DNA from: a virus
Length of the DNA stretch: 64,000 nt
UHGV virus genome: UHGV-0375936
Strand: one strand, 5' to 3'
Shown here one piece after another: positions 24,947 to 48,706 of this stretch. The notes beneath the pieces were generated by a model. It ran no database searches, had not been told where the DNA came from, and saw only the letters and a list, made by a program, of their open reading frames with translations. The translations under genes were made by a program, and so were the position numbers. Numbering within the stretch: position 1 is the first letter of the stretch; every line of letters begins with the position of its first letter.

Positions 24947-24982
24947 TTTAATAACTCCAATGGTGTTACACCTGGATAATAT

Positions 24983-25651
24983 CTATCTAAGAATATTTTT
25001 AGCGAAAAAAGGATCGACTATAAACTCCTTCACCTGTGAGTCATAACCCGAATGTATTTGATCGCTACTGAGCAAATACCCGTCTAAATCGTGTGGAAGA
25101 ATCCAAGAATCCCCCTGTTTAAAAATACCATAATCTGTTGTTCCAGAGGAAAAAACGATTTCCTCTGGAGAGGGATAGATGTGGCGTAAGGCAAGATCAG
25201 ACGGCTTTAGCACGATTAATCGAACGGGATGTTGACTGACTGCCTCTTTAATAAACTGTTCACGATTAAACCAAATTATTTTTTCGGGGTAAGTTTCGAA
25301 TTCAGCCCATGTCCGCGTGATAACTAATTTGGAAATCTTTCTCAATTCTTCAGAATGCTCTGCGTAGCCGATACACTCCTTGCGTACTTCATGATTTTCT
25401 ACCGATGCTGTGAATTTTTGGAATAGGTGTTGTTGGAAAAAGCCGTTCTCCGGGATATCACAACCCGCGTTGTATAGTGCAACGATCTCCCACAACAACG
25501 AAAGAGAAAACACAAATGCTAACTTTTCCACAACTTCCCAATCTTCGGAGTAAGGGGCTTTAAAGCCCCAATACTGCCGTGCGTTATACATAAAGTGAGT
25601 TTGTAAAAACCGAGGGGCTTTTGACAAGACCTCACTATAAACGATCAGCAT
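24983..25651 (-). CDS. Hypothetical protein (222 aa)
   Basis: ORF, minus strand. Confidence 0.55.
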   Translation of the reverse strand: MLIVYSEVLSKAPRFLQTHFMYNARQYWGFKAPYSEDWEVVEKLAFVFSLSLLWEIVALYNAGCDIPENGFFQQHLFQKFTASVENHEVRKECIGYAEHSEELRKISKLVITRTWAEFETYPEKIIWFNREQFIKEAVSQHPVRLIVLKPSDLALRHIYPSPEEIVFSSGTTDYGIFKQGDSWILPHDLDGYLLSSDQIHSGYDSQVKEFIVDPFFAKNILR

Positions 25652-33173: not shown

Positions 33174-33683
33174 TTAGAAGAACGGCTGATTTGGAATGAC
33201 AGCGTACTCTAAAATGAACATATGTTCCGGGGCGTCTTCTTTACGCCAGACTTTGTGTGTCGACACAAGTTTTTCCAGAATCGTTAAGAAACTACGTTGG
33301 CAGTATGTGTTTTCACCAAGCAGTAGATTTTGAAGTTCTACAGTAGCGTCCATATACGCCTGTTTAAAGACTAAACTACGGTTATACTGCCCGGTAAAAT
33401 TCCAAAGCAAGACCTTCCCTTCTTCGGTTTCTTTTACCGTTGGCCGTAAACCACAAATCCACAGTAAGGCAAGGTTGACGTTCCAGTCAAACTCTAAACC
33501 TTCTTCTTCGTCAACACCGAATGCTGTGGGTAAAGCATCGTAAAATTCGTGTTTCTCTGCGAATTCTTCATCCGACTTAATCTCGTCTTCGATACTGCTT
33601 CGGACAATACTGTAAACGTCTTTCGCGGTCAATTGTGCGGCTTTTGTAATGCCTTTATACCAATCGGTTACTACGATGCTCAA
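33174..33683 (-). CDS. Hypothetical protein (169 aa)
   Basis: ORF, 4-nt overlap with upstream SLT gene. Confidence 0.55.
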   Translation of the reverse strand: MSIVVTDWYKGITKAAQLTAKDVYSIVRSSIEDEIKSDEEFAEKHEFYDALPTAFGVDEEEGLEFDWNVNLALLWICGLRPTVKETEEGKVLLWNFTGQYNRSLVFKQAYMDATVELQNLLLGENTYCQRSFLTILEKLVSTHKVWRKEDAPEHMFILEYAVIPNQPFF

Positions 33684-34405
33684 AGGGTAACTCCTCTATT
33701 GATTGGAAAACTCGTGTTTATCGTATCCCAAATTCTACTAACTTCCGCCAGTTGAATCTGACGTGGTGTTTTCTTCGCAAACGCAAGCTGACGTGGGGCC
33801 GAGCCCACAACAACAGGCACATCGATTTTCGCGCTATAGAACGAGGCGTCTTTCATAAAGCCTGCCATTTCTCGTTGTGCTGCTCGAGATTTGCTTTTGA
33901 TTCGCGTGTGAGCGCCACTTTCACCCCAGTGGTAAGCTAACGCAACTTCAGCCATGGTGGGCTTGCGTTTGAGTCGTTTGGTTAACCCCTTCTCAAGATG
34001 TTTAACATACGCGGTAGCCAGCAAAACAGCATTACGCGGATTATACAAATCGGCGTTCTGACTAAGACCTAATTCTTTTCCATAAAGCTTTAGCAGATTA
34101 CGCTTGGTACTTGGAAGCATTTGTACCAGGCTGTGTGCTCGTGAGCTTTTGTTGTAAGCCTTGGGATCAAAACGCGATTCACGATAAATCAGCGTAATCA
34201 TCAGCTTGGGATCAACGCCCTGCTTTCGTGAGATTTCCACAATTAACGGGCTGACTTTTTCGAACCGATGTTGGATTTGTGCAAACTCTCGCTGATGCTT
34301 AGAATGTGGCGTTGACGTTGACGCCTGTGCGTTAAACGCGAAAAGTGTTACCAGTAAAAGAAAGAAGATACGAAACATTTTGTTTCTCCAGTTGGATTTA
34401 TACAT
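33680..34405 (-). CDS. Secreted lytic transglycosylase (SLT domain); candidate endolysin
   Basis: Signal-like MFRIFFLLLVTLFAFNAQA; SLT motif YRESRFDPKAY...SLVQMLPST...AYHWGE. Confidence 0.7.
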   Translation of the reverse strand: MYKSNWRNKMFRIFFLLLVTLFAFNAQASTSTPHSKHQREFAQIQHRFEKVSPLIVEISRKQGVDPKLMITLIYRESRFDPKAYNKSSRAHSLVQMLPSTKRNLLKLYGKELGLSQNADLYNPRNAVLLATAYVKHLEKGLTKRLKRKPTMAEVALAYHWGESGAHTRIKSKSRAAQREMAGFMKDASFYSAKIDVPVVVGSAPRQLAFAKKTPRQIQLAEVSRIWDTINTSFPINRGVTL

Positions 34406-34478
34406 TTCCGTATTCCGTAAGACGAAATGACGGCGCGGACAGCTAATACTCCTTTGTTGTGTGCCCTAATGATAATAT

Positions 34479-34976
34479 CTATTTAAAAGAGTTTGGAATT
34501 AATGACTCTGCTTCTTGGTACAGCTTATCAGGTAAATATAACGTGTAGCGCTGCCTCCTCGGTTCAAGTTTTTTGTAAAGCCACAAAAAGATTTCTTGTC
34601 TTTCCCAGGAATCTAACCACCCATTTGCCATCCCCAGTGGAGGGATAGCAACGCTGGTATCCAGATCCTCAGCACAGTCTGCTAATGCGGTAATGCCCGC
34701 AGTAACATAAGAAACCTGGGATTTTAAACGCCAATGTGTTTTCGTGGGGAGCAAGATACACTTTTCGTCAGAGTAAACGTAAACGCTTCCAATCTTAATT
34801 TCGTCTTCACGACACCGCTTACGATAATCCTGATAAAGGTTGGGGTAGCGTTCACGACACGCGAGTGCAATACCGCGACCCATCGCTCCTACGCAGTTAA
34901 TGGTAACGACTTTATAGTCTTCGGGCGCATTAAAAAGATCGTTACCAATTTCAGATTCTTTACGTACCGTTAACAT
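34479..34976 (-). CDS. Macro domain protein, TARG1/OARD1/DarG-like (ADP-ribose processing)
   Basis: NDLF...KVVTINCVGAMGRGIALACRERYP and LGMANGWLDSWERQ resemble my recollection of the TARG1-type motifs; track start at 35039 is TTG, ATG at 34976 used. Confidence 0.6.
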   Translation of the reverse strand: MLTVRKESEIGNDLFNAPEDYKVVTINCVGAMGRGIALACRERYPNLYQDYRKRCREDEIKIGSVYVYSDEKCILLPTKTHWRLKSQVSYVTAGITALADCAEDLDTSVAIPPLGMANGWLDSWERQEIFLWLYKKLEPRRQRYTLYLPDKLYQEAESLIPNSFK

Positions 34977-35700: not shown

Positions 35701-36144
35701 TTAGAATGTTTTGCTAAAATCGACCCACTCACGATCGTGTGAGTAAACCGCTTGATAGCCGCGTCGGATGAAATACTCTTTTGCTTCTTTACATTTCGCA
35801 TACATGCCAGTAACAATCTCGCCGAAAACTTCATCAGCTGCAATTGCTTTGAAAATCTCTTTCATTACACCCCGTTGACGATAGTCTGGGAGCACGTATA
35901 CCGAACGTATCTTAAGTGAACCGTTACGATTCCGATAACTACAGTATCCTACCGCGACATCATCCTGATACACCAGAACTATGCAGTTACCTTCGATCAG
36001 CTGTCGCGCATTTAACTTCGGCACCGACATTTTGATTTTCAGTAACGTGGCCTGGTGGTCTAAGTAACGGTAGTGTAGTTTGAGTAAATCGGCAGCTTGT
36101 CGCTCGCCAACTTTAGAAGATGCGTTCAACAAATAAATTTCCAT
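35701..36144 (-). CDS. GNAT-family N-acetyltransferase
   Basis: VLPDYRQRGVMKEIFKAIA (acetyl-CoA binding R/Q-x-x-G-x-G/A type motif); track start is TTG, ATG at 36144 used. Confidence 0.55.
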   Translation of the reverse strand: MEIYLLNASSKVGERQAADLLKLHYRYLDHQATLLKIKMSVPKLNARQLIEGNCIVLVYQDDVAVGYCSYRNRNGSLKIRSVYVLPDYRQRGVMKEIFKAIAADEVFGEIVTGMYAKCKEAKEYFIRRGYQAVYSHDREWVDFSKTF

Positions 36145-36175
36145 TTGCAAACCTTAGAGACGCAAAAAAGTAAAA

Positions 36176-36304
36176 TTAAAACCAACGCGCGATGACGAAA
36201 GCCGCAGCGGCTAATATGGCTGTGGTGATTATCAATCCACCCCATGAAAGTTCCGCGTCGTATAGTGCGGATATCGCTACATTCGTAGCGTTTATCGTGG
36301 TCAT
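36176..36304 (-). CDS. Micro membrane protein (42 aa)
   Basis: ORF below track cutoff; CAGGAGCAGAAA-ATG; MTTINATNVAISALYDAELSWGGLIITTAILAAAAFVIARWF. Confidence 0.4.
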   Translation of the reverse strand: MTTINATNVAISALYDAELSWGGLIITTAILAAAAFVIARWF

Positions 36305-36361
36305 TTTCTGCTCCTGTCAATACCCTCACACCGGAGGGTATCTTCTGGACTATTTGGGTGG

Positions 36362-36460
36362 TTAATCTTCGAACGCCCAACGGTGACGTTTAATCAGCCA
36401 GTTTAAACCTTTACCAATTAACCACAACGAGCCAAGTGTTAACAGAACCCCTACAACCAT
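36362..36460 (-). CDS. Micro membrane protein (32 aa)
   Basis: ORF below track cutoff; AGGAGAGGGAAT-ATG; MVVGVLLTLGSLWLIGKGLNWLIKRHRWAFED. Confidence 0.4.
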   Translation of the reverse strand: MVVGVLLTLGSLWLIGKGLNWLIKRHRWAFED

Positions 36461-36470
36461 ATTCCCTCTC

Positions 36471-36650
36471 CTAATTCCGCCATTCGCATTCGCGTTGACG
36501 CCAAATTGAACCCCACGATAGTTTAATCAGATAAGATGAAACTACCCATAAAATCATCACCACACAAAACATGACATAAAGAACCGCTAGAATGGACATG
36601 AAGCCAAACCCTGCCGCATCCACAATACGACGGAACCAATCAGTTTGCAT
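36471..36650 (-). CDS. Small membrane protein (59 aa)
   Basis: AAGGAG upstream of ATG at 36650; hydrophobic FGFMSILAVLYVMFCVVMILWVV; overlaps 3' end of SbcC-like gene. Confidence 0.45.
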   Translation of the reverse strand: MQTDWFRRIVDAAGFGFMSILAVLYVMFCVVMILWVVSSYLIKLSWGSIWRQRECEWRN

Positions 36651-39144
36651 AAACAATTTTTACTCCTTCGTTATACACCGCAGGCAATGTCACCCCTTCC
36701 GGTTCGATGACACAGTACGATGCTTCATTAAGTTTAGAATGAACCTCGGCTTCGTGGGAGACTACCAACAGTTGGGAAAATTCTCCCGAGTTTGCTAACG
36801 TTTTAATAAAACCGACCAGGTTGTTACGGTGCTCCTCATCCATGCCTTCCGAAGGCTCATCCAAAAGCAACGGAAACTGATGCAACTTCAGCGCTTTGTA
36901 CGCAGTCAGCCTGAACATCAGATTAAATATCGCACGCTGCGCCTTAGACCCTTTACGCACGTCAGGAACAGGCTCAGGATGCGTTTTTAGCTGGACAGGA
37001 AAAGTATAATCCAAATCGCCGTCAGTGAGGTCACAAGGCATAACGCGCATGGGGTACGTCCAGACCTGTTCGATATAACGCGTCATTAACTCTGTGATTC
37101 TAACGATAGCGTTGTAAAAATACTTTCTAAGTACACCCTTTTCTGGCGAGAAGGCTTGAATCATCAGTTTGTTATTGAACTGCTGGGCTTGTAAGTCAGC
37201 AAGTTCGCGTTCCAAACTGTTGAGCTGATTCAATTCATTTTCCATCTGACGATAACGTTCGCGTGCGGTTGTAAAAGCATCCAGCTTCCCTTCTCGAGCA
37301 CGTAAGAGTTCCTCGACGACCGTATTTGTCAACGTAACCTTAACATCACTCTCTAACCGTTCGAATAACGCACTGAAATCATCTACAGCACGTTTAACAT
37401 TCACCAGATAGGTAAGTGTCGTGTTAGCCAGTTCGTGCTCTCTACGACGCATTGAGAGCATCTCTGTGGCTTTACCTAATCGTGACTGTTGAAAAGCAAT
37501 TTTCTGTTGTAAAGCACCATCGACGTTACCAACGGCCGCTACGGCATCCTGCCATTCTTTTTCCGCCTTCACTAACCGTTGTCGGGTTTCATGGTACTCA
37601 ATAGCAGAGTACAACTCACTGTCAAACGCTGCGCATAGACTACCGAACTGTTCACGTGATTCTGTGAAAACGTTACGTTCTTGCAAACGCTTAAAGAACA
37701 TGCTCAATACCGGGTCCTTTGAATACGTCAGCACAATCTCACGAACCTGCCGCATATAAGTTACATCAGATTCTAACTCAACACGATCGCGTAATAGGGC
37801 CTCTAACTGCGTTTGCAGTTCCGTGCGCTGCTGCTGTTGTCCACGAATCGAAGACTCAAGTTCAGGTAAAGAACGTGTAACACCAGGCCGAAACTTAAAC
37901 CGGCACTGCGGACAATCCACTTCCGCTGTTTCTAAGTAGTGATTACGTTCGTGATTTAAATTCTGTAAAACGTTCTCCACTCGCTGGAGTCTATCCCGCA
38001 ACCCTGCGGTTTTTTGATCCATCACCAGAAGCCGTTCTTCCAAAACATTGAGTTTTTCAGTTGAATGAATTGCGTCCAGTGTTGTTCCTAACCGTTGCCC
38101 CCAAACACGCGCATCGGTAGCCGCACGAAGTTGGTCTAAATTGACGTTGTCGTTAAATAGACCCGGAAAGAGATGCTCGGTGTCCCATTTGGTAAGTAAC
38201 TCACGTAAACGCGCCAATGTATTCTTGAGACCTTCGTGATTCCGCATCAGGTAGTCTTGTCGTGTTGACTCATCCATCAATAACGACAAGTCTTTATTCA
38301 ACATCGATACCTCTGTTTCAGTAGACACGACAGCTTCGCGGGCCGTCGCTTCGTTTTGTCGCGCGACCAGTATCTGTTCATCGGTAGGCAGGCCACCACG
38401 ATGTTGTAATATTGCGTCGATGGTTGGGCCCAAGCTGTTTAATAACGCTTGGATTGTTTCGATGGTGACGGCACGATTTAATCCTGGCAACTGTTCGATT
38501 TCTCGGTTCAATTCACGTAAATCCGATTCCAAACCTTTTAATCTCGTCGCTAACTGCTGCCGTTCTTCCTCGTTCTCAATAACACGCGTCCGTAATTCGG
38601 CGATCTTGCGGCTGGTGATTTCAATACCCCCATTTAAGGCAGTAAGGTTTTTACGTAAACGTTGATAAAACCCTAACGCGTAAGTGAGGTCAGAGGTACT
38701 TAAACGGTAAAACCATTTGCGGCGTAATTCGGTTCCCGCATCGGTTAACAACACCTCACCATTTAATAGTTCTTTAATCTCTTTCGTAATACCCGTGATT
38801 TCTTCAACACGGGAGTTGTAGACTTTCGCATTACCTTGCTCGACGATCTTTGTCCCCGTGGTCAGGTTCTCAATATCGCAAACCAAAGAGTTGCCTTTAC
38901 GGGCAACTTTGAATCGATAGCGTTGATCGCCAACTAAACAGTAGTTCGTGTAAGAACCGCCGTCCCTGAATTCAGTTTTAGCTGGTGCTAAGGGTAAGAA
39001 CACAGACAGTAGACTGGTTTTCCCGCAGCCGTTCCCACCCAGGATAATTGTTGTCGGAGACTGGATAGTGAAATCGAAGGTTTCAATTTCATGTAACCCC
39101 ATCCCCGTAAAACCTTTGAGTATAATGCGTTCAACTTTTAGCAT
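36640..39144 (-). CDS. SbcC/Rad50-like SMC-family ATPase with CxxC zinc hook
   Basis: Walker A ILGGNGCGKTSLL; long coiled-coil middle; CPQC hook; Walker B/D-loop LLLDEPSEGMDEE; start set to ATG 39144 preceded by GGAGGTGGG. Confidence 0.7.
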   Translation of the reverse strand: MLKVERIILKGFTGMGLHEIETFDFTIQSPTTIILGGNGCGKTSLLSVFLPLAPAKTEFRDGGSYTNYCLVGDQRYRFKVARKGNSLVCDIENLTTGTKIVEQGNAKVYNSRVEEITGITKEIKELLNGEVLLTDAGTELRRKWFYRLSTSDLTYALGFYQRLRKNLTALNGGIEITSRKIAELRTRVIENEEERQQLATRLKGLESDLRELNREIEQLPGLNRAVTIETIQALLNSLGPTIDAILQHRGGLPTDEQILVARQNEATAREAVVSTETEVSMLNKDLSLLMDESTRQDYLMRNHEGLKNTLARLRELLTKWDTEHLFPGLFNDNVNLDQLRAATDARVWGQRLGTTLDAIHSTEKLNVLEERLLVMDQKTAGLRDRLQRVENVLQNLNHERNHYLETAEVDCPQCRFKFRPGVTRSLPELESSIRGQQQQRTELQTQLEALLRDRVELESDVTYMRQVREIVLTYSKDPVLSMFFKRLQERNVFTESREQFGSLCAAFDSELYSAIEYHETRQRLVKAEKEWQDAVAAVGNVDGALQQKIAFQQSRLGKATEMLSMRRREHELANTTLTYLVNVKRAVDDFSALFERLESDVKVTLTNTVVEELLRAREGKLDAFTTARERYRQMENELNQLNSLERELADLQAQQFNNKLMIQAFSPEKGVLRKYFYNAIVRITELMTRYIEQVWTYPMRVMPCDLTDGDLDYTFPVQLKTHPEPVPDVRKGSKAQRAIFNLMFRLTAYKALKLHQFPLLLDEPSEGMDEEHRNNLVGFIKTLANSGEFSQLLVVSHEAEVHSKLNEASYCVIEPEGVTLPAVYNEGVKIVYAN

Positions 39145-39164
39145 ACCCACCTCCATAAAGACGG

Positions 39165-39217
39165 AGTGTGGTGTAAAAAGAAAAAAATAAAGAAAGGGAG
39201 AACCCGAAGGTTCTCCC
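39165..39217 (-). terminator. Rho-independent terminator (minus strand)
   Basis: GGGAGAACC-cgaa-GGTTCTCCC hairpin then long T-run on minus strand. Confidence 0.65.
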
Positions 39218-39222
39218 TAACG

Positions 39223-39831
39223 TTATTTGGTATACAGCTGATAACCCATTGAAGCCCAATAATCAATGTTCTTCGCGTTTTCTACCCAAACCTGTCCCGC
39301 CTTTGTGGCTAAGACTTCCATTGTCAATGTACAGATCAGATTTGTTACCTGGATACAATTTCCAGGTGTAACATCATCCAGATAAACCGGATATAAAAAC
39401 GGCGATTTAATGGATTGGTACGGGTAAGAATAGTGGCTACCGACTTTCCACCCTTCTTCTACAGGGCAGAGATTATAAGTGCGTGTTTCAGGAACTGCGT
39501 TTTCAGAGATCCAGTTAACAACATCGGCTTTAATTCGATCGTGGTCGATATAGTAGAACACAACACGCTGTGGGATACTTGTGGTACCAGCCGGGTCTAA
39601 AGCCTCCAACGCCTTAAAAGGCGACGTTAACAATGTTGTACTGTTCTCAAGCGCGTAAACCAACTTTTCGTAAGCAGTCGGTGTTTTGCGTTTAAAATAT
39701 TCCCGTAAGCGAGGGTAAGCCAGGAAGCCCTCTACTTCTTCTTCCATTAAGTCAATGAATAAAGGCGTATGCGAAAACCGCTCTGCATTTTGCATCGCTT
39801 CAAGAAAACGAACTAATGTAATTTCGTTCAT
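39223..39831 (-). CDS. Hypothetical protein (202 aa)
   Basis: ORF, minus strand; no metallophosphatase motifs seen. Confidence 0.55.
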   Translation of the reverse strand: MNEITLVRFLEAMQNAERFSHTPLFIDLMEEEVEGFLAYPRLREYFKRKTPTAYEKLVYALENSTTLLTSPFKALEALDPAGTTSIPQRVVFYYIDHDRIKADVVNWISENAVPETRTYNLCPVEEGWKVGSHYSYPYQSIKSPFLYPVYLDDVTPGNCIQVTNLICTLTMEVLATKAGQVWVENAKNIDYWASMGYQLYTK

Positions 39832-39844
39832 CTGGTCTTTCCTT

Positions 39845-39879
39845 TTAGATCAAAAAAAGAAGCCCCGAGTAAACGGGGC
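39845..39879 (-). terminator. Rho-independent terminator (minus strand)
   Basis: GCCCCG-agtaaa-CGGGGC hairpin then TTCTTTTTTTGATC on minus strand. Confidence 0.55.
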
Positions 39880-39887
39880 CGGGCTAA

Positions 39888-40364
39888 TTACAGCCCTAAG
39901 TGCGTGAGTGATAAAATAGGTTGTGTTTCACCTTTAATCGTCGCGTAGGAACGATACATTTCTGCGTTACTTGAAAAAACTTCGTTAGCAACGATACATT
40001 CACCCGTCTCTAAAGAAAGGAGATAAATGTAGTCGCTCCATACGCTTTGTACCAATACCCACTCAAGTGCGGTATCATTTTCGCGTGTTGTTCGCAGGTG
40101 ATGAAAGTAAGGACGGATTGCATCAACCGCCGCATTAAAACGACGGTGATAGATTCGGGTTAAATCAAAGGTCCAGATTGTTTCCAGGTCGACTGGATGT
40201 AATGTGCGCACCGTTTCGATAATCGTCGACTGATCGTTAAGGCGCGAGGCTTCGGCGATACGTAGCAGTTTCCAGGCTACCGTTAAGTTGTGGCGAATTT
40301 GTTCAGGTTTAGCCGACAGGTCATGATGAAATTGCGCAGCTTGGTAAACGTTAGATAATTGCAT
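39888..40364 (-). CDS. Hypothetical protein (158 aa)
   Basis: ORF, minus strand. Confidence 0.55.
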   Translation of the reverse strand: MQLSNVYQAAQFHHDLSAKPEQIRHNLTVAWKLLRIAEASRLNDQSTIIETVRTLHPVDLETIWTFDLTRIYHRRFNAAVDAIRPYFHHLRTTRENDTALEWVLVQSVWSDYIYLLSLETGECIVANEVFSSNAEMYRSYATIKGETQPILSLTHLGL

Positions 40365-40384
40365 TTTAATACTCCTTTAGGTAA

Positions 40385-40420
40385 ATATGTCGTAAAAAGG
40401 ACCCCGGACGTACCGGGGCC
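40385..40420 (-). terminator. Rho-independent terminator (minus strand), end of secreted-protein operon
   Basis: CCCCGG-acgta-CCGGGG hairpin then TCCTTTTTACG on minus strand. Confidence 0.55.
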
Positions 40421-40430
40421 AAGACTACAC

Positions 40431-40820
40431 TCAAAGATCTAATTCGATAGCACCAGCCATCTTGCCCCGTTCTTCTATAACGATCAGATAACGGTCGCGA
40501 GATTTGCTTTTAGCGAGAGTTAAGACAACGGTAGGGTCGCACGTTTTCGTGGTGATAGGAAGAACCTCTCTTGCGACGGAATCGAGCAGAAAGTAATAAC
40601 CTGCGGGACACATTGTGCCGCCATCAGCTTTTACCAGAATATAGCGCCCGTCTGCGCCGACTTCTTGGCAGATTGTTTCACCGACTTCGCAAACTTCAAA
40701 CCCCGGAGGATTGTACTGGTAATCGGTATTGTTGTTTGGGGTTAGCAGTAAATCGTTAACTTGAGTAGATGCTGCTACACTCAGGGAGAAGAAGAATGCT
40801 AAAACGCAGACGAGACGCAT
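40431..40820 (-). CDS. Secreted small Cys-containing protein 1 (129 aa)
   Basis: Signal-like MRLVCVLAFFFSLSVAAS; AAGGAG RBS; CEVGETICQ...GRYILV motif shared with next gene. Confidence 0.6.
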   Translation of the reverse strand: MRLVCVLAFFFSLSVAASTQVNDLLLTPNNNTDYQYNPPGFEVCEVGETICQEVGADGRYILVKADGGTMCPAGYYFLLDSVAREVLPITTKTCDPTVVLTLAKSKSRDRYLIVIEERGKMAGAIELDL

Positions 40821-40830
40821 GAGTTACTCC

Positions 40831-41241
40831 TTAAATTTTAAGTTTATCCATAGCTACAACGATAGGTTTTTCCGAAGTGTCTAATATCCCTACCATTGGC
40901 ACACCATCTACGACTTCGAAGAATGGTTTGTTATTACCAGAGCATAGACGTTTGTCGTTGTATTCGAGACGCTGAGCCTTCCACGTTTCGAGGTTGAGTA
41001 CGGACATTGGGCTGTCGTAGCACCAGGCACCACCTTGCTCAACGATGAATACGTATCTGCTACCTTTGTATTTAAACAGGCTCTTTGCCTGGCAGTACAA
41101 CCCGTCTATTTCCGTACAATAGAAATCATCGGTGCTATTGACGTACTTAATATTGTCTGGCAACTGTATTGTCTTTGCTGTAGCGTTGACAGAGAACAGA
41201 ACAGCCATTGCAATGAGAAGAGTATTAATGATAGTTTTCAT
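40831..41241 (-). CDS. Secreted small Cys-containing protein 2 (136 aa), paralog of protein 1
   Basis: Signal-like MKTIINTLLIAMAVLFSVNATA; CTEIDGLYCQ...SRYVFIV. Confidence 0.6.
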   Translation of the reverse strand: MKTIINTLLIAMAVLFSVNATAKTIQLPDNIKYVNSTDDFYCTEIDGLYCQAKSLFKYKGSRYVFIVEQGGAWCYDSPMSVLNLETWKAQRLEYNDKRLCSGNNKPFFEVVDGVPMVGILDTSEKPIVVAMDKLKI

Positions 41242-41252
41242 GATAAAAGTCC

Positions 41253-41738
41253 TTAGTATTTAGATTGTTCTACGTACTTCTTAACCAGGTAAGCGAATTC
41301 GGCAACACCGATATCACCGAACCAAATCAGGTAACCGGGGTCGATGTTGTAGTAATAACCGACGAGTTTCTTGGTGTGTGGGTTGTATAGCGTTACGATG
41401 TATTCCCAACCACAAGCGTTAGCTTTACAACCGCCACTTTCAATCCAGATTTTGTTGTTGATGTTTACCGGATACATGTTACCGCCAGGGCCATCCATGT
41501 AACCTTTAGAGCCGAACATACCATCCAGTCCCACAGGGTCTAGTGTTTTATCAACAACGGCTTTAAACGACTTATCGGTATCGTACAAGTCGTTGATGTT
41601 TGGGCACGCATTTGGCTGGCCTTCCCAAGCGTTTCCATCACAGGTAAGCAATTCGTCTACGGAGGCCGCATCTACAGTTGGCGTGGCACCGATAAACAAG
41701 AAAACCAGAAAGAACATCAGTGTATGTAAACGTTTCAT
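41253..41738 (-). CDS. Secreted small protein 3 (161 aa)
   Basis: Signal-like MKRLHTLMFFLVFLFIGATPTVDAA; Cys pairs CDGNAWEGQPNACPN, CKANAC. Confidence 0.6.
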   Translation of the reverse strand: MKRLHTLMFFLVFLFIGATPTVDAASVDELLTCDGNAWEGQPNACPNINDLYDTDKSFKAVVDKTLDPVGLDGMFGSKGYMDGPGGNMYPVNINNKIWIESGGCKANACGWEYIVTLYNPHTKKLVGYYYNIDPGYLIWFGDIGVAEFAYLVKKYVEQSKY

Positions 41739-41756
41739 TGTAACTACTCCTTTAGA

Positions 41757-42149
41757 TTATTCGGCAGGACGATTTAAGGTAACGCGTCCGATTAATTCAG
41801 CGTTGTGAAAGAAGTCCACAGCGGTATAGTTACCAACTGATAGCGGATGGATACTAACTGACATTACTTTTGGTTGTTCGCAGGCGATATCCGTCAGGCG
41901 TTGGTAGACTTGTGCACGAGTGTCAGCAATGAGTAATCCCGTACACGTTTCACCACGCACTAAACGATAAACTTGCAGTTTACCGAAACTGCGCATTAAC
42001 GTAGGCGTCTCATCCGGGTTGATAATCGGTGACTCAGGAGCCGGTTCGTAATAGCGGACATCCGAATCACCGAAAGCATAAGTGCCAGTAATTCCGACCG
42101 CACAGAAAACAATGATAGTATAAAGTATAGTTCTGATATTCATTTTCAC
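41757..42149 (-). CDS. Secreted small protein 4 (130 aa)
   Basis: Signal-like MKMNIRTILYTIIVFCAVGITGTYAF. Confidence 0.6.
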   Translation of the reverse strand: MKMNIRTILYTIIVFCAVGITGTYAFGDSDVRYYEPAPESPIINPDETPTLMRSFGKLQVYRLVRGETCTGLLIADTRAQVYQRLTDIACEQPKVMSVSIHPLSVGNYTAVDFFHNAELIGRVTLNRPAE

Positions 42150-42171
42150 GCACTCTAAAAAAGATTAATAC

Positions 42172-42633
42172 TTATTTGTTAGGACGGGTGTGTCCACAGT
42201 TCTGGAAGAAAGTTTCAGATAAACGATCGCCTTCTACGGTAAAGTTAGCGGCATCGTTACCATTGATACTCACACTGAAAGTTTTGGCATTACCGATAGC
42301 ATTAACGAAAGCAACCCAAGCGTGTTCTGCCTTGTCGCTACCGTCCACGGTAGGGATGTTATAGGTTTTGCCGTTTACGACAATATCCATCATGTTATCT
42401 TCAGCGTTAGTTGCACCTACGGGTTCCCCGTAATACCAAACCATGCGACCGTAAAATTTGCGATTCACAGTTTCTGTGTCACAGTTGATAGACAGTCCGT
42501 TTCCGGCGGTGTCTTCGATTTCGTAAACTGCCTGGCCAGGGTTTTGTATTTGTTCCCAACTATTGATTGCAGCGTATGCGCTATTGAGGCCGAAAGTTAA
42601 AATGGTTATTAAGAATGTGATAAAGGTTTTCAT
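42172..42633 (-). CDS. Secreted small protein 5 (153 aa)
   Basis: Signal-like MKTFITFLITILTFGLNSAYA. Confidence 0.6.
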   Translation of the reverse strand: MKTFITFLITILTFGLNSAYAAINSWEQIQNPGQAVYEIEDTAGNGLSINCDTETVNRKFYGRMVWYYGEPVGATNAEDNMMDIVVNGKTYNIPTVDGSDKAEHAWVAFVNAIGNAKTFSVSINGNDAANFTVEGDRLSETFFQNCGHTRPNK

Positions 42634-42679
42634 TGAAATGCTCCTTCGAGTTATGGGGAAGCTCCCACAAATTATGAAA

Positions 42680-43051
42680 TTAAATAACTGTGTTGGGTAA
42701 TGCTTTAATCTGTGTATAACTATCTCCGATACCTCTTATCATTTCCAGACGCTCTTCTGTAGAAAGGCTTTGGTTAATGTCTTTGTCAAGATTGAACAGT
42801 GTCAAGAGTTTTGCAATTGCAACCGTCAAGTTGTCGGACAGCTCGTTGTTTTTACGCCATTCTTCGTTACGGAAAATAGAGATAAGGTCTTTCGCCTGGC
42901 CTTCAGCGTGCGGTTTGGCTAACTGCGCGTCACGCTGTTCGATAAGGTATGCTTCGTTAGTAAGTAAACGTTTCAGGTTTTCTGGGTTAGTGGCAGCGCG
43001 AGTAACGATCATTAATACAACAAACGGGTCTTTAAATAATTCGTTTTTCAT
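42680..43051 (-). CDS. Hypothetical protein (123 aa), first gene of secreted-protein operon
   Basis: TTTTAGGAGAACTAAAG-ATG; no signal peptide. Confidence 0.55.
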   Translation of the reverse strand: MKNELFKDPFVVLMIVTRAATNPENLKRLLTNEAYLIEQRDAQLAKPHAEGQAKDLISIFRNEEWRKNNELSDNLTVAIAKLLTLFNLDKDINQSLSTEERLEMIRGIGDSYTQIKALPNTVI

Positions 43052-43081
43052 CTTTAGTTCTCCTAAAATGGTTTTCGTTAA

Positions 43082-43125
43082 GTGAGAGCTTTTGTACTCT
43101 CACCTAAGTAATATATATCTGAAAT
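43082..43125 (-). promoter_or_regulatory. Conserved 25-nt motif plus leader hairpin (copy 1); candidate promoter
   Basis: Minus-sense ATTTCAGATATATATTACTTAGGTG followed by GTGAGAG...CTCTCAC hairpin, then RBS/ATG of 42680-43051; 23 of 25 nt identical to copy at 47484-47508. Confidence 0.35.
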
Positions 43126-43141
43126 TATTTTTAATATTAAC

Positions 43142-43178
43142 GAACAAAAAAATAAAAGGTGGGGGTAAACCCCCCACC
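43142..43178 (-). terminator. Rho-independent terminator (minus strand)
   Basis: GGTGGGGG-taaac-CCCCCACC hairpin then TTTTATTTTTTTGTT on minus strand. Confidence 0.65.
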
Positions 43179-43182
43179 GATG

Positions 43183-43761
43183 TTATACATCGAACCGATA
43201 CTGCCGGGAGTTAATGAGGAATTCGGTATTCAGCTCAATCCATTCGAGTAAATCACCCAACGGTAATCGGTTTGGGTTTTCTAACTCAATAGACGCTACC
43301 GGATAAGAGTTTACTAATTCCGTAATTGTATCAATACCCTCTTGCGTTCCATCGTCTTCTAAGGTGATTGTAAACGGCATATCGGTACGATCCGCATTAG
43401 GATTGTACAAACTGACTTTTGTTGCTTGGACAAACGCAGACAGGTCGTCACGTATAATGCGTGTATCAGGCGATAGAACTACCCAGAGATGCTGCCCTGG
43501 CTGGAGTTTACGTTTTGCGTAGTTTAAGAAAGGACTTGCCATCAAGTTTTCCAAACCACAACAGATGCTACGTAACTGTATTCCGCGCGGATCTCGGTAA
43601 TCCACATCGAAAATTCCCACAGGTTCATTCGCTGCCTGTTTTATCAGAAAGGCCAATACCGTGTCCGCTCTTTCTGGTAAGGAAAGCTCTATTCCCTCAA
43701 GCTCCCCATCGACGAGATTTTCTAACCAAACGTCTTTTCGCATTTCTATTAATCGGTACAC
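43183..43761 (-). CDS. Hypothetical protein (192 aa)
   Basis: ORF, last gene of operon downstream of paralog family. Confidence 0.55.
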   Translation of the reverse strand: MYRLIEMRKDVWLENLVDGELEGIELSLPERADTVLAFLIKQAANEPVGIFDVDYRDPRGIQLRSICCGLENLMASPFLNYAKRKLQPGQHLWVVLSPDTRIIRDDLSAFVQATKVSLYNPNADRTDMPFTITLEDDGTQEGIDTITELVNSYPVASIELENPNRLPLGDLLEWIELNTEFLINSRQYRFDV

Positions 43762-43773
43762 GGTTCCACCTCA

Positions 43774-44547
43774 CTAATAATTAAGTTTTACATCGGCAAT
43801 AAACAGCAATTGTTTACCATGTTGCTGCACTTCTTTCCAACCTAGTTTCATAGCAGCGTCAACAACATCTAACATGCTGTAACGGGACATCAAAGATTCT
43901 GATTTTGTTCCTGACATTAAGTAAAGTGGCTCATTAGGGCTACGGTCACGTGCGTCAGGAAGTTCCCGAGAGACTGCTGATCCTTCGGGTACGGTAACAA
44001 CATGAATCACGGTAAATGGTCTCTTGTGCGTCAGATAGATACGAAACCCAACGTGTTCAGATTCATGAAAGACTTTCTTCACAACCACATCTTTTAGTGT
44101 CGTCTGAACATCAGCCCCAGGTAATATCGTGGTTTCACGTGAAACGAAACAACGGCTATTTTCAATCGTGGAGAAATAATTACGTATCGGCAAACTAGCG
44201 TTATGATCGCGCAGTTTTTTGCTCAGTAGATCGAAGTTCAGTTCTTTAACTTTCTCTAGCCATTCTTTGGCTTGTTGAATGTAATAACTACCGACAGTGC
44301 GATAAGTTAATACCTTACCTGTGCTTACTTTCCAAAGTTTAACGCTTAGTGAATTTGGCTTATAGCGACGATACTCACCCCGCGTATAGTTGATGCGCTC
44401 GTAACGCTCTACATCGTCAACGGGTGCAGATTCGATCGATTGTAATTGCAGCGTACGATCTAATCTATCGGCGAATAGTAGTGATGTTAGCGGACCTTCG
44501 ATCAAATACGGTTCGGTTTTAAAGATATCATCTAGATGGATTTTCAT
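43774..44547 (-). CDS. Paralog-family protein 4 (257 aa), shared C-terminal module
   Basis: C-terminus DVVDAAMKLGWKEVQQHGKQLLFIADV. Confidence 0.6.
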   Translation of the reverse strand: MKIHLDDIFKTEPYLIEGPLTSLLFADRLDRTLQLQSIESAPVDDVERYERINYTRGEYRRYKPNSLSVKLWKVSTGKVLTYRTVGSYYIQQAKEWLEKVKELNFDLLSKKLRDHNASLPIRNYFSTIENSRCFVSRETTILPGADVQTTLKDVVVKKVFHESEHVGFRIYLTHKRPFTVIHVVTVPEGSAVSRELPDARDRSPNEPLYLMSGTKSESLMSRYSMLDVVDAAMKLGWKEVQQHGKQLLFIADVKLNY

Positions 44548-44614
44548 TTCTATTTCCTTCTTAACAAAAGCCGCGACTAAAGCGCGGCAGTTAGAGAAAG
44601 TCTATTTTTACTTA

Positions 44615-45766
44615 TTAGAGGTCAGCAACAAACAACAGCTGGCAGCCGTACTTTTGTACGTCCGCCCAACCGTAGTCTTTTCCGATTATAGGTAGATGTA
44701 AAATATCCAGCTTCTCGTCTTTCGCTTTTAGTTTCGCCATTAACGCATTGGACTCCTCAGCACTGAGGAGTAATGCTGGCTCTTTTTCAGTACGTCCTTC
44801 TGCGGTTGGGAAGAAATTGTAATAGCTGCGAGTAGGTAAATCGACAGAAAAACTACGATTGCCTATTCTGGCGATGAACGCAACTCCTTCACAGTTAGCA
44901 TCTACACTACACGACCATCCCGCCTCCGTTAAAAGGTCTTTTAACAGACACCACACTTTAAGTTGGTTCTTAGAAACTGTACGGTAAATAGCAAGATGTT
45001 CAGGAAGTAAATGTACGCCCATAACCACGTTTTCAGATTTCTCGTCAAGCAACTCTGGATGCTGTATCGGGAACAATAATTCACTGATACCCACGTTATC
45101 AATTTTGTTAACAAAATCAGTTAATTCATCTTTTAAGGTAGACACTTGATTTTCTCCTTTGTCTTCAATAATCAGGTGGGGTTCGCCGCTAATTAAAATG
45201 TGGTAAACGAGATCGTCAGTAGAACGGTAAGTGAGCTTGATTGCTTTATCACTTAATATTTCGTAGCGGAAGAAACTTTCGTACCAACTTGAGCCGAAAT
45301 CGTTTTGTGTAAGCTCCTGCTCAACTTTGATGGTTTTTGCTTCAAAGCCGATTAACTCGCTTAATAACGCGAGTTCTTGTTTAGTTAAAATAGCTACACC
45401 GTGAAAGGGCACTTGTTCAAGCTGAAAACATAACTTAGTGACTTCACCATTTGGGAAGACCTTAAACATAATCTTCCGGTTGCTACTCTTTTCCCTAACA
45501 ACGAGTTTACGGTAATTTAGTCCACAATTTGTGTAAGCCGCGAACTGGTAACCTTCAATTTCTTCATCGGAAGTACAGACATCGACAGGCGCGATAATCT
45601 CATCGTATTCACTAAGTACACAGCAGCCCAATTTATAACCAAACAACGTATGTTGTAAAAAATAGTCGAGGGTTAAGCTTGGTAGTGGCCAAGCCCGATT
45701 ATAGCATCTGTCCATCAGTTCTTTTAGGTACTTGGCATGTCTTGGTTTAGAAATAATATTTCGCAT
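44615..45766 (-). CDS. Paralog-family protein 3 (383 aa), shared C-terminal module
   Basis: C-terminus FFPTAEGRT...LLL...GKDYGWADVQKYGCQLLFVADL. Confidence 0.6.
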   Translation of the reverse strand: MRNIISKPRHAKYLKELMDRCYNRAWPLPSLTLDYFLQHTLFGYKLGCCVLSEYDEIIAPVDVCTSDEEIEGYQFAAYTNCGLNYRKLVVREKSSNRKIMFKVFPNGEVTKLCFQLEQVPFHGVAILTKQELALLSELIGFEAKTIKVEQELTQNDFGSSWYESFFRYEILSDKAIKLTYRSTDDLVYHILISGEPHLIIEDKGENQVSTLKDELTDFVNKIDNVGISELLFPIQHPELLDEKSENVVMGVHLLPEHLAIYRTVSKNQLKVWCLLKDLLTEAGWSCSVDANCEGVAFIARIGNRSFSVDLPTRSYYNFFPTAEGRTEKEPALLLSAEESNALMAKLKAKDEKLDILHLPIIGKDYGWADVQKYGCQLLFVADL

Positions 45767-45797
45767 TTTTACTCTCCTTTAGGGGTTTTTTCGTTAC

Positions 45798-46352
45798 TTA
45801 AGCAGGGCAAGCTAAGAACAACAACTGCTGACCGATTTTACGTACGGTATACCAACCGTGGGCTTTAGCGACCGCGATCAACGTTTCCCAGTCATCAACA
45901 TCACATTGCTCGTTCCGAAGTTTTGTAAAGAGTGCTTCGGCTTCGTCTTGGTTTAATAACTTACCTGGATTATCAGGGGTGGTGCCAGAAGGGGTTGGAA
46001 AGAAATCGTATTGACGCGCTAAGAGAAAATCAACCAGATACTTGGTGTTCTCTTTATAAACCAGTGTGGAAGTCTTCCCTTCGTGGAAGAAGCTGCCTGT
46101 TTTCCAAACGCTATCTTTCAGTAAGCTCTGAAGGTAATCTGTAAAGCCCGTTCTAAATGGGATATGCGTTTTACGCGTGATGTTGCGACGCAGCGGGGTT
46201 TCCTCCACAGCTTGTACACTCACCCCTACTATCATCGCACCTGGCTGAATAATGGTATTGGTCAGTACGGTATAGGGACAGTTAAAGAAATGTTCACCTA
46301 CACCTTTTTCAAGGGATTGGATAATTTCATTTTTCAGTTTAGTCAGATACAT
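45798..46352 (-). CDS. Paralog-family protein 2 (184 aa), shared C-terminal module
   Basis: C-terminus FFPTPSGTT...LL...AKAHGWYTVRKIGQQLLFLA; 3' DNA similar to that of 44615-45766. Confidence 0.6.
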   Translation of the reverse strand: MYLTKLKNEIIQSLEKGVGEHFFNCPYTVLTNTIIQPGAMIVGVSVQAVEETPLRRNITRKTHIPFRTGFTDYLQSLLKDSVWKTGSFFHEGKTSTLVYKENTKYLVDFLLARQYDFFPTPSGTTPDNPGKLLNQDEAEALFTKLRNEQCDVDDWETLIAVAKAHGWYTVRKIGQQLLFLACPA

Positions 46353-46378
46353 GATATATTCTCCTTTTAGGTTTTTAC

Positions 46379-47113
46379 TTACGCGGTTTTAATTAGCAGC
46401 AGATAGCCCTTCGTAATCTCAGCACAACTCCACCCTTTTACGGCAGCGACACCACGAAGGTAATTTTCTGTGTGATACTGTAAAAACGGATCGTCTGGAT
46501 TAATCTCAACTAGGTGAGTGGCTTTAGAAATCGTTTCCGCCTCTGGGATTTGTTTTGTTAAGCCTGATGCAATCAGTTCAATAACGCGGTATCCCTCTAA
46601 CCAAGAAACATAGATACGTAAACCGTATAACTTACCGTTATCTTTTAAGGGATAAAGACTGATGTCCCGGCCGAGCAACGTTAATTCTACATCAGTGGGA
46701 AGGTTTTCTACATGCTTGATTAACCCTACCCCATGTCTAAACAGTGGGAAGTAAGAGTATAGCGTCAGCATACTGCTTCCTCCAATAAACGTAACATCGG
46801 AAACGGTAGGCGTGCTGGCAATGAGGCGAACATGTTCCGCTACGACTTCAAGTTCGGCGTCACTGATCAATTTATAGAATAAAATGACGCTGGTTTCGGT
46901 ATTAAGAACAAAGAAGAACCGGTTGGCGTGACTGCTTATCGTGTATTCGTCAACCATGCTGTCGATAACGTCACTGTCTGGATAATCTTCGGGTTTAATT
47001 GTTTCAGCAGAGACTAACTTAGCAGGTTGGGATTGCCCTATTAGTTCATTAACCACCGTAGAAGAAAGTTCTAAACTGGTGTTAGTAAAGATATCGTCTA
47101 ATAATTCTCTCAT
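46379..47113 (-). CDS. Paralog-family protein 1 (244 aa), divergent member
   Basis: C-terminus GVAAVKGWSCAEITKGYLLLIKTA; LKD..G segment as in other members. Confidence 0.5.
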   Translation of the reverse strand: MRELLDDIFTNTSLELSSTVVNELIGQSQPAKLVSAETIKPEDYPDSDVIDSMVDEYTISSHANRFFFVLNTETSVILFYKLISDAELEVVAEHVRLIASTPTVSDVTFIGGSSMLTLYSYFPLFRHGVGLIKHVENLPTDVELTLLGRDISLYPLKDNGKLYGLRIYVSWLEGYRVIELIASGLTKQIPEAETISKATHLVEINPDDPFLQYHTENYLRGVAAVKGWSCAEITKGYLLLIKTA

Positions 47114-47453
47114 GATTTACTCGCTAATCTCAATAAAGGGGAGTCTATTATTATGGATTGTAAAAGAGGTATAAGGAAGTCACTACGTTCCTCTGGGAAG
47201 AGTATGTCGGTATACTACGTATACCTCCGCTATTTATATCCGTATACATAATGCCCCCTACCCCCTACCGGTATCCCGAGTAGCAGAATAAAGGGACATA
47301 ATGTAATTTTTAGTACCTGTTATCGGAAGGTACTAAATGGAGTGTAGTCTTTAAGCCGTTTGAGCAGCTCATTGAGACTTTCTTTCTTTTTAGTAGACAT
47401 GATCTGTCTCTCCAAATGGTTTAATCAATCCGTTTCGAATGAAACGTGCTCGT

Positions 47454-47508
47454 AGGGACTGAACTGGTACTTCAGTCCCTATTCACTTAAGTAAAATATA
47501 TCTGAAAT
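47454..47508 (-). promoter_or_regulatory. Conserved 25-nt motif plus leader hairpin (copy 2); candidate promoter
   Basis: Minus-sense ATTTCAGATATATTTTACTTAAGTG followed by AGGGACTGAA...TTCAGTCCCT hairpin; 23 of 25 nt identical to copy at 43101-43125. Confidence 0.35.
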
Positions 47509-47533
47509 CAATTCCGATCTAAGGAACGTCCCG

Positions 47534-48499
47534 ATGGAGAAATCCAGTGTTGATTTTTTCTCAATTGGTATCGTCGCGGAAGACAAACCCCGTGGTACAG
47601 ATCGGGTAAAAGTGATACCAATTGAAACCAACTTTGCTAACCCTACCGTGGTGCAATCTGTTTCTTCAGCAACTGAAAAGACGCATGAAACGTCCGGTGC
47701 AACAGATAACCTAACCATTAAGACGGGTAACACGATAACCGCAAAGTGGTGGAAGTTTAACTCCAACCGAATTAATTCCCCTGACGTTAAACGAGAAGAC
47801 TACGTTATCTTGTTGCGTTTGGGGAAAACCGATATTTATTTTTGGATTGATCTGAACTTCGCTAACGTTAAGCGATTAGAAGATGCGGTTTATGCGTGGT
47901 CGGCTGACCCTGAAAACCAAATGGCGGATGACTTGTCCAATGCGTATGTGTTGAACGTTTCGACGATTGACAAACATATCACGCTAAGAACGAGTATGGT
48001 GAATGGCGAGAAAGCGGCGTGGTTGTTTCAGTTTGATAATGCAAACGGTACGTGGCAGTGCGTTGACCATAAAGGAAACAAGTATTACATTAACTCGGTT
48101 GAAGATGATCTCGGGTTTGAGAATGCGATGCTTTCAAAAGTGAACATCAACAAAGAAGATGCGTTCATTTATTCAAAGCGTTCTATTAACCTGGAAACGA
48201 AAACGATTAATGAAAAATGTGAAGTCCGCAATACGGAAGCAGCGAATTCCGTTACGTTTAAAACACAAACCTGGTTAACAGAAGCGGGCAGTTCGACAAC
48301 GTTTAAAACGCCGAACTTTAAACAAGAAGGGAAGGAAGCGATGTTCACCGGTAATTTGGAAATCGCTAAGAACTTCAAATACGGTGGTACGGGTGAAGGC
48401 GTGGGTGTCTTTACGGTTAAAGATGCCATTATTTCCGGTATTACCTTTAGCGTTCACATTCACCAAGGTAAACATGGCCCGACATCACCTCCACAGTAA
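47534..48499 (+). CDS. Hypothetical structural protein (321 aa) with His-rich C-terminus
   Basis: First gene of plus-strand late block; C-terminus SVHIHQGKHGPTSPPQ; function not established. Confidence 0.55.
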   Translation: MEKSSVDFFSIGIVAEDKPRGTDRVKVIPIETNFANPTVVQSVSSATEKTHETSGATDNLTIKTGNTITAKWWKFNSNRINSPDVKREDYVILLRLGKTDIYFWIDLNFANVKRLEDAVYAWSADPENQMADDLSNAYVLNVSTIDKHITLRTSMVNGEKAAWLFQFDNANGTWQCVDHKGNKYYINSVEDDLGFENAMLSKVNINKEDAFIYSKRSINLETKTINEKCEVRNTEAANSVTFKTQTWLTEAGSSTTFKTPNFKQEGKEAMFTGNLEIAKNFKYGGTGEGVGVFTVKDAIISGITFSVHIHQGKHGPTSPPQ

Positions 48500-48706
48500 T
48501 TCCCCTTTTTCTTACGTTGTTTTTATATATTGTGACCTGACGTTGGTAAAACTTTTTATCAACACTTTTCTTAAACCCATCGTTTAGTTAAGCAGGCCAC
48601 TTTTTTTCGCGCACTCTACTCCTCCCTACGGGGAGGAGCTATCTTATGCTTCGGTTGTAACACACGTCGGTCTTAGACCACTAACCTTTTGAAATGGAGA
48701 GCTGTT

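Follow-up and report, generated by a model that had tools for sequence, protein, structure and literature searches.

A 64,000-nucleotide (nt) stretch of the viral genome UHGV-0375936, hereafter the window, carries two closely similar 25-nt motifs, given on its plus strand as CACCTAAGTAATATATATCTGAAAT at 43101-43125 (site 1) and CACTTAAGTAAAATATATCTGAAAT at 47484-47508 (site 2), which are identical at 23 of 25 positions. As an initial annotation of this DNA had proposed, the two copies head two operons, each lying upstream of, and reading in the same direction as, a run of minus-strand genes. With a probability of roughly 0.85, these motifs represent early promoters for the virion RNA polymerase (vRNAP) of an SPN3US-like, phiKZ-related jumbo phage, an assignment based on their match to the promoter consensus sequences of this group. 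Comparison with related genomes adds that such sites occur in two subclasses, that the stronger subclass regularly couples the promoter to a hairpin at the predicted 5′ end of the transcript, and that one insertion in the window is bounded by the promoter.

Agreement with virion polymerase promoters

According to reviews, an A/T-rich element centred near −10 precedes the early operons of every jumbo phage that encodes its own RNA polymerase (RNAP), and is the mark of a vRNAP promoter. Where tested, namely, in AR9, phiKZ, and 201phi2-1, this element precedes primary 5′ ends, and the injected vRNAP must be the enzyme that reads it. The reported early-promoter consensus sequences are TATATTAC for phiKZ, TBYAWWWWWTTTCARRYAKATATTATYWAAGTGWA for N1M2, BSHAWWWWWTTTYARRYAKATATTATYWWADTG for OBP, and ...TTTRARR_BTATATTACDWHDGTG for 201phi2-1, with TTTCARRYAKATATTATYWAAGTG as the core string of N1M2 and OBP (PMC7058600). 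In AR9 the arrangement is AAATATATATTAT-(6N)-G+1, and phiKZ and phiR1-37 likewise start 6 nt past the element (PMC5312081).

Read on the minus strand, the window motif takes the form ATTTCAGATATAT(A/T)TTACTTA(G/A)GTG, and TTTCAGATATATATTAC-TTAGGT-G is compatible with the consensus strings of N1M2, OBP, 201phi2-1, phiKZ, and AR9 alike. Both sites contain GATATAT(A/T)TTAC, the A/T-rich element of about 10 nt in the phiKZ-type consensus, and at both a G stands 6 nt past this element (TTAC-TTAGGT-G at site 1 and TTAC-TTAAGT-G at site 2). Under the spacing rule of AR9, phiKZ, and phiR1-37, the last G of each 25-mer, at 43101 and 47484 on the minus strand, is therefore the predicted +1 nucleotide. 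vRNAP injected with the DNA would initiate at these sites, with the A/T-rich core GATATATWTTAC at about −18 to −7 and with the final G, 6 nt past this core, as the first transcribed nucleotide. Two early operons of small proteins would be transcribed from the minus strand, one starting at 47484 and ending with the terminator at 43158-43178, the other running from 43101 onward. Their genes matched only families of "unknown function" in Pfam and PHROGs. We infer the polymerase, the exact start site, and the early timing at these positions from the shared motif.

The initial annotation had favored a phage-specific promoter over a generic sigma-70 promoter, a preference that is supported by the match to the vRNAP consensus, by the kinship of the phage with SPN3US, and by a sigma-70 scan (−35 and −10 hexamers each matching at least 4/6, spacer of 16-18 bp) that found no minus-strand match at site 1 or site 2. 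A strong host sigma-70 early promoter of the T4-like kind, combining the −10 hexamer TATATT with an A/T-rich UP-like element, would account for the agreement of TATATT with TATAAT at 5/6 positions and for the A/T-rich upstream region. This explanation is nonetheless quite improbable, in that neither window site passes the scan, site 2 lacks any −35-like hexamer (the position reads TAGATC), and the strongest conservation falls where sigma-70 does not read, in the spacer TTTCAGA and in ACYTAGGTG (−8 to +1). Furthermore, transcription in related phages does not depend on host RNAP, and the motif is the same as the vRNAP consensus established by mapping.

A jumbo phage encoding a split virion polymerase

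Judged by its proteins, the window is a segment of an SPN3US-like (phiKZ-related) jumbo phage. The best protein identity is that of a 723-amino-acid (aa) open reading frame (ORF), 63-64% identical to homologues in SPAsTU, phiEaH2, and SPN3US; the order of the window ORFs is the inverse of that of their counterparts in SPN3US 146-208 kb; and the PHROGs matches in the window are, as expected, to jumbo-phage virion and replication families. A megablast of window positions 42000-48500 against 50,697 phage records found no DNA similarity besides the promoter region, which matched intergenic DNA of the Erwinia jumbo phages phiEaH2, Stratton, and Asesino. In these phages the layout is the same, consisting of a terminator, an A/T-rich tract, the identical motif, a GTGAGAG hairpin, a Shine-Dalgarno (SD) sequence, and an ATG.

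A split multisubunit vRNAP is encoded in this genome, as indicated by a homologue of one of its subunits at 17039-17707 (Table 1) and by synteny, which places the large vRNAP beta genes just past the window's left end. The ORF at 17039-17707 is presumably the counterpart of SPN3US gp218, a correspondence drawn from locus tags by size and reversed numbering; gp218 is the 25-kDa betaC ejection protein of the SPN3US vRNAP. The product of this ORF would belong to the enzyme that is predicted to read the promoters described here.

Table 1. Positions of features in the window, numbered from its first nucleotide
Feature	Positions	Strand	Remarks
Class-B early-promoter-like site AGTCAGACAGATATTATCTACGTG	15853-15876	minus	Upstream of ORF 15282-15830; orthologous SPN3US site 191598
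222-aa ORF, putative vRNAP betaC subunit	17039-17707	minus	83% identical to SPN3US ORF annotated "RNA polymerase beta subunit"
Class-B early-promoter-like site TCTTAGATAGATATTATCCAGGTG	24969-24992	minus	Upstream of ORF 24209-24946; orthologous SPN3US site 184040
Weaker class-B site TTTTAAATAGATATTATCATTAGG	34465-34488	minus	Upstream of ORF 33680-34405 (SLT-transglycosylase; SLT domain found); orthologous SPN3US site 174950
Block absent from closest relatives	42647-43095	minus	Hairpin, leader, 123-aa gene, spacer; from alignment
123-aa gene	42680-43051	minus	Inside the extra block
SD sequence AGGAG of 123-aa gene	43060-43064	minus	In the leader, within the block
Site 1 hairpin	43082-43103	minus	Inverted repeat GTGAGAGT..GCTCTCAC (GTGAGAG/CTCTCAC); overlaps last 3 nt of motif
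Site 1, predicted class-A early promoter	43101-43136	minus	About −35 to +1; 25-mer at 43101-43125; predicted start G 43101
Terminator-like hairpin GGTGGGGGG..CCCCCACC with T-run	43147-43178	minus	Ends site 2 operon, just upstream of promoter 1
26-aa ORF (MSTKKKESLNELLKRLKDYTPFSTFR)	47320-47400	minus	ATG at 47400, good SD; first ORF of predicted site 2 transcript
Second, small hairpin of site 2 leader	47431-47446	minus	CGTTTC-loop-GAAACG; conserved in 4/5 relatives
Site 2 hairpin	47453-47481	minus	11-bp stem, 7-nt loop; +4 to +32 of predicted RNA; 2 nt from motif
Site 2, predicted class-A early promoter	47484-47508	minus	Variant TATTTTAC..TAAGTG; predicted start G 47484

Five sites in the window

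When at most three mismatches are allowed, the motif occurs twice in the window, and a set of 100 dinucleotide-preserving shuffles contains no match at all. The statement in the initial annotation that there are only two copies holds for this near-perfect form, and its suspicion that more may exist was borne out by a search of the whole window, which added three weaker, degenerate copies, all on the minus strand (24969-24992, 15853-15876, and 34465-34488). A weight matrix built from 17 SPN3US sites alone and then run over the window returned exactly five sites, where 0.2 per window are expected in random sequence, with scores of 48.4 bits at 43101, 33.1 at 15853, 31.1 at 47484, 29.9 at 24969, and 15.8 at 34465. 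Counting matches to a degenerate consensus likewise yielded five sites at a cut-off of at least 19/24 (0.65 expected) and four at 21/24 or better (0 expected). A cut-off of at least 17/24 proved uninformative (19 sites observed vs. about 29 in shuffles) and was replaced by these higher ones together with the independent matrix.

All five sites lie on the minus strand with a co-oriented start codon 22-90 nt downstream, and none of those found by the matrix scan of the window stands in front of plus-strand virion or structural genes. A dispersed repeat without relation to genes was rejected, as every copy is co-oriented with, and lies within this distance of, a gene start. Five transcription units in an unannotated segment are hereby assigned to the predicted early vRNAP class, with nucleotide-level start predictions at 43101, 47484, 24969, 15853, and 34465, all on the minus strand.

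Two subclasses and their distribution

The sites fall into two subclasses. Class A, the strong sites marked by "TTAC," has the form GATATATATTACYTAGGTG and includes both 25-mers, and class B has the form GATAGATATTATCnnnGTG (subclass label string GATATTATC) and includes the other three window sites; a few hybrid sites exist. The class-A consensus, derived from 50 unique sites in about a dozen jumbo-phage genomes, is AtTaaAAAt.aTTTCAGATATATATTACtTAGGTG(+1)Agagt. The G at +1 is invariant in all 50, and the 5′ untranslated regions (UTRs) cluster at 46-65 nt. Upstream of the 25-mer, the family consensus continues for about 12 A/T-rich nt, reaching about −35, and it also takes in the first 4-5 nt of the transcript (GAGAG). 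The earlier remark that flanking DNA is not conserved is correct for the two window copies compared with each other but does not extend to the family, whose conservation continues beyond the 25-mer on both sides. The invariant −34 to +5 stretch obtained from these 50 sites offers a substrate for in vitro work on promoter recognition by vRNAP.

Beyond the window, the exact 24-mer of site 1 also occurs in SPN3US, phiEaH2, and metagenomic jumbo contigs. An exact class-A 19-mer was found in 44 IMG/VR stretches, at no more than seven copies per contig, and the contigs that bear it are 107-246 kb long, two short fragments (7-8 kb) excepted. About 20 sites were found in SPN3US, where nearly all of them directly precede annotated plus-strand genes and point in the same direction. 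Many copies, sharing the orientation of the operons of mostly hypothetical genes before which they stand, and not placed before virion genes, are typical of phiKZ-type early promoters, and the five sites of the window agree with this pattern. Four of the five window sites have orthologous SPN3US sites (43101/165683, 34465/174950, 24969/184040, and 15853/191598). Site 2 is conserved in the five closest relatives only (loci L052-L055 and L062), and its position is empty in SPN3US, phiEaH2, and other distant relatives.

The arrangement of these copies also bears on the notion that the motif is an operator for a phage DNA-binding regulator, with the promoter located elsewhere. The class-B core GATAGATATTATC is partly palindromic, and one SPN3US site scores on both strands, as an operator might. 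However, conservation is asymmetric, orientation relative to the downstream genes is strict, and the conserved G and the start codon stand at fixed distances from the motif (5′ UTR of 46-65 nt); these short intergenic regions contain no other conserved promoter-like element. An operator is, in consequence, a very remote prospect.

The leaders behind these promoters have recurrent elements of their own. Between the 5′ hairpin and the SD sequence, 13 of the 50 class-A sites carry the motif (A)ATCGACYAT(Y)A (e.g., L010, L011, L020, L022, L025, and the Erwinia loci L001/L002), of which window site 1 has a diverged form, TAACGAAAACCATTTTAGGAG; it may be a translation-related element. The class-B leaders of L006, L007, L010, and SPN3US 109889 share GAAATTTACG inside a small hairpin.

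Hairpins at the predicted 5′ ends

The initial annotation had placed a hairpin of unrelated sequence beside each motif copy. Both statements are correct, with an overlap of 3 nt between motif and hairpin at site 1 and a 2-nt gap at site 2, and the pairing of motif and hairpin turns out to be a regular property of class-A promoters. On the inferred starts, a stem begins within a few nucleotides of the RNA 5′ end at both sites, from +1 at site 1 and from +4 at site 2. In the predicted site 1 RNA, the hairpin spans +1 to +18 (43084-43101) and leaves no unpaired 5′ nucleotide; its folding free energy is −12.1 kcal/mol for 35 nt from GTG (z −5.0) and −8.3 from +1. The site 2 hairpin reaches −17.3 kcal/mol (z −5.8; 35 nt folded from GTG). 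All 11 of its base pairs are kept in six related sequences; three of the pairs carry compensatory double changes, and its loop varies freely.

Across the 50 unique class-A sites, the +1 nucleotide is the first paired base in 34, with a mean folding energy of −7.1 kcal/mol and a mean z of −2.2 relative to same-sequence shuffles. The stems are built from a 5′ arm that always consists of the conserved GAGAG/GAGAT start and a 3′ arm that differs from site to site and complements it. Class-A folds are more stable than class-B folds (Mann-Whitney p = 6e-5), sense folds are more stable than antisense folds (−7.3 vs. −5.7; Wilcoxon p = 6e-6), and the sense folds contain 40 G·U pairs, which together point to RNA structure on the transcribed strand. 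Random 35-mers are a weak control for hairpins, as their G+C content exceeds that of the leaders and 30% of them pass the hairpin criterion; reliance was therefore placed mainly on the per-sequence shuffles and on the comparisons of class A with class B and of sense with antisense. Rfam searches that covered the whole window with gathering thresholds, and 42900-47600 with a cut-off of E ≤ 1, returned nothing relevant, the only match (rli47, 14.9 bits) being noise.

An AU-rich motif immediately 5′ of a stable hairpin, and the favored folding of the sense strand, would equally suit an RNA processing or stability site, in which an endonuclease cuts within the motif, the hairpin shields the new 5′ end, and no promoter is present. 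The processing site that the initial annotation offered as an alternative is not needed, and the possibility is slight in the extreme. Site 1 lies directly behind a terminator-like hairpin with a T-run, leaving little read-through RNA to process; site 2 heads a divergent region with no co-oriented gene upstream; and the motif precedes primary 5′ ends in AR9, phiKZ, and 201phi2-1.

If the motifs are promoters, the hairpins could still act on transcription itself, either as attenuators or premature terminators that generate short 5′ RNAs or as aids to promoter escape. In 201phi2-1, premature termination within 5′ UTRs that yields small RNAs is reported. The SPN3US site orthologous to site 1, at 165683-165790 (L018/L047), has a class-A promoter with its 5′ hairpin and then, ahead of the gene, a second, terminator-like hairpin (GGCTACC..GGTAGCC) with a T-run, which could release an RNA of about 55 nt or attenuate the operon. 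The 5′ hairpins themselves lack a terminator tract: none of 38 class-A hairpins has five or more T within the next 7 nt, and the window pair continues with ACUUAAC and CGAGCAC. They were rejected as intrinsic terminators or attenuators on this ground, and the idea that they assist promoter escape or attenuate transcription is a weaker, rather unlikely alternative.

A role in messenger stability is more plausible. In E. coli, 5′-terminal stem-loops of the type found in the ompA 5′ UTR block RppH and the 5′-end-dependent entry of RNase E. By analogy, a 5′-terminal stem-loop would hide the triphosphate end of very early phage mRNAs and slow their 5′-end-dependent decay by RppH and RNase E. We put this mRNA-stabilizing role somewhat short of an even chance. 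If the 5′-hairpin regularity is functional, it informs how the earliest phage mRNAs are protected.

Several points weigh against the interpretation given here. Start site, timing, and polymerase are all assigned by motif homology alone, and some class-A sites of other phages carry a fair TTGATT box exactly 17 bp upstream of TATATT, in keeping with a sigma-70 promoter, so that some use of host RNAP is possible. About a quarter of class-A sites are without a convincing 5′ hairpin and class-B sites are mostly without one, which indicates that the hairpin is not required for promoter function. The 50 class-A sites include orthologous sites of related phages and are hence not fully independent, and the proposed stabilizing role draws on general knowledge of E. 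coli.

A promoter-bounded insertion at site 1

Promoter 1 is followed by a block that is absent from the closest relatives (Table 1). The closest, L005, shares 93% identity with the window over 36002-42646 and 85% over 43096-44824, and is without 42647-43095; L023 and L039 show the same gap. At its left junction the extra block, of about 420 nt, meets the promoter immediately behind GGTGAGAGT, and the right junction coincides with the SD sequence of the next gene. The hairpin and leader of the block share 96% identity with a cassette in L003, and a different gene stands behind this cassette in L003, L008, L038, and L043. Homologues of the 123-aa gene itself occur in L031, L045, and SPN3US (223349), where they lie behind class-A promoters with other hairpins. 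The conserved unit of promoter, GAGAG, and SD sequence probably also serves as a short homology patch for the insertion or swapping of genes, and an insertion bounded in this way hints at the route by which early accessory genes are reshuffled.

The site 2 region

In minus sense, the initial annotation had described the order of motif, hairpin, ribosome-binding site, and first gene. This order is present at both sites, with the amendment that the first ORF at site 2 is one of 26 aa, not the 244-aa ORF, which begins with the ATG at 47113; a conserved non-coding stretch of about 200 nt separates the two. Although their DNA has diverged, L062, L053, L054, and L055 retain an ORF of 25-26 codons whose peptide is similar, and L052 has lost it; the 26-codon ORF probably encodes a real micro-protein.

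A conserved non-coding element at window positions 47190-47270 (minus sense) recurs at SPN3US 161480-161555 and in loci L052-L063, with one copy each in the window and in SPN3US. It consists, in order, of GGGGG-TA-GGGGG, a variable segment, CGGAGG, a small hairpin, and CCGACATcCTT, and the hairpin covaries (GGTATAC/GTATACC, GGTATCC/GGATACC, and GGTGAC/GTCACC). In all 13 SPN3US-like sequences examined, including those without an early promoter at this place, the element has the baseplate gene on one side and the first gene of the divergent operon on the other. It has no Rfam match and could be either an RNA leader element or a DNA site.

Promoter 2 is arranged back-to-back with this plus-strand baseplate gene, whose ATG lies at 47534, 25 nt from the motif. 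In this stretch (47508-47534), the A/T-rich upstream part that such promoters usually have is replaced by the 5′ leader of the baseplate gene. The sequence conserved before this gene in distant relatives, ..TAGTATGA.. in reverse-complement reading, contains TATG, which is the late-promoter core reported for phiKZ.

Elsewhere in the window, a perfect 10-bp hairpin, AGGGAGAACC..GGTTCTCCCT at 39195-39218, scores as a terminator on both strands and lies between the ORF at 39223-39831 and an SbcC-like gene at 36640-39156.

Comparison with known systems

The element belongs to an already known class, the jumbo-phage vRNAP early promoter, and the addition made here is a modest one, comprising the division into classes A and B, the 5′-hairpin regularity, and the promoter-bounded insertion. 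The sites share with phiKZ-type early promoters the core sequence, the G six nt past the core, the A/T-rich upstream extension, the tens of copies per genome, the position ahead of operons made up of small hypothetical genes, and a genome with a split multisubunit vRNAP. They differ from the described promoters of this type in that two subclasses (TATATATTACYTAGGTG and GATAGATATTATCnnnGTG) coexist in one genome and that the GAGAG start of class A is folded into a hairpin flush with +1. Neither the subclass split nor the flush hairpin is described in the open-access text of the literature searched.

Injected virion polymerases and inverted repeats at promoters are also features of N4-type phages. 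In the N4/LUZ7 layout, a DNA hairpin with a 3-nt loop is centred 13-14 bp upstream of the start and is read by a single-subunit enzyme. By contrast, the window hairpins begin at +1 to +4 of the predicted transcripts and have loops of 6-7 nt, and across sites the hairpin would lie downstream of +1, with loops of 4-8 nt and with class-B sites mostly lacking one.

The stem-loops of the ompA type provide a parallel at the RNA level, as they too leave 0-3 nucleotides unpaired at the 5′ terminus. Unlike the E. coli mRNAs, the predicted transcripts here would be the products of a phage polymerase acting in infected cells.

In overall organization, there is also a resemblance to the promoter-early stem-loop (PeSL) cassettes of T4-type phages (Arbiol et al., 2010, PMC2839356; Comeau et al., 2014, PMC4122927). 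PeSLs are conserved intergenic composites of about 90 bp, made up of an A/T-rich region, an early promoter, a stem-loop, and an SD sequence, that flank small genes of unknown function and contain the junctions of insertions, deletions, and gene swaps. The composition is paralleled here, and one such junction case is found, the block at 42647-43095 that is missing in L005, L023, and L039. The PeSL promoter is of the sigma-70 type, and its stem-loop, described as situated between −35 and −10 or over −10, acts as a terminator. In the window, by contrast, the promoter is of the kind read by a phage RNAP, the hairpin follows the predicted +1 and is devoid of a U-tract, and a single bounded insertion was examined. 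It is a speculative and rather doubtful proposal that the strongest early promoters of SPN3US-like phages form part of a mobile cassette of about 90 bp, composed of an A/T tract, a vRNAP promoter, GAGAG in a hairpin flush with +1, and an SD sequence. The hairpin might then be a device by which the first mRNAs survive host RNases or RNA-targeting defences, or receive special handling on leaving the injection vesicle, and the cassette a recombination handle for early "host-takeover" genes. If this proved true, the mobile cassette would represent a jumbo-phage counterpart of the T4 PeSLs, built on a different polymerase.

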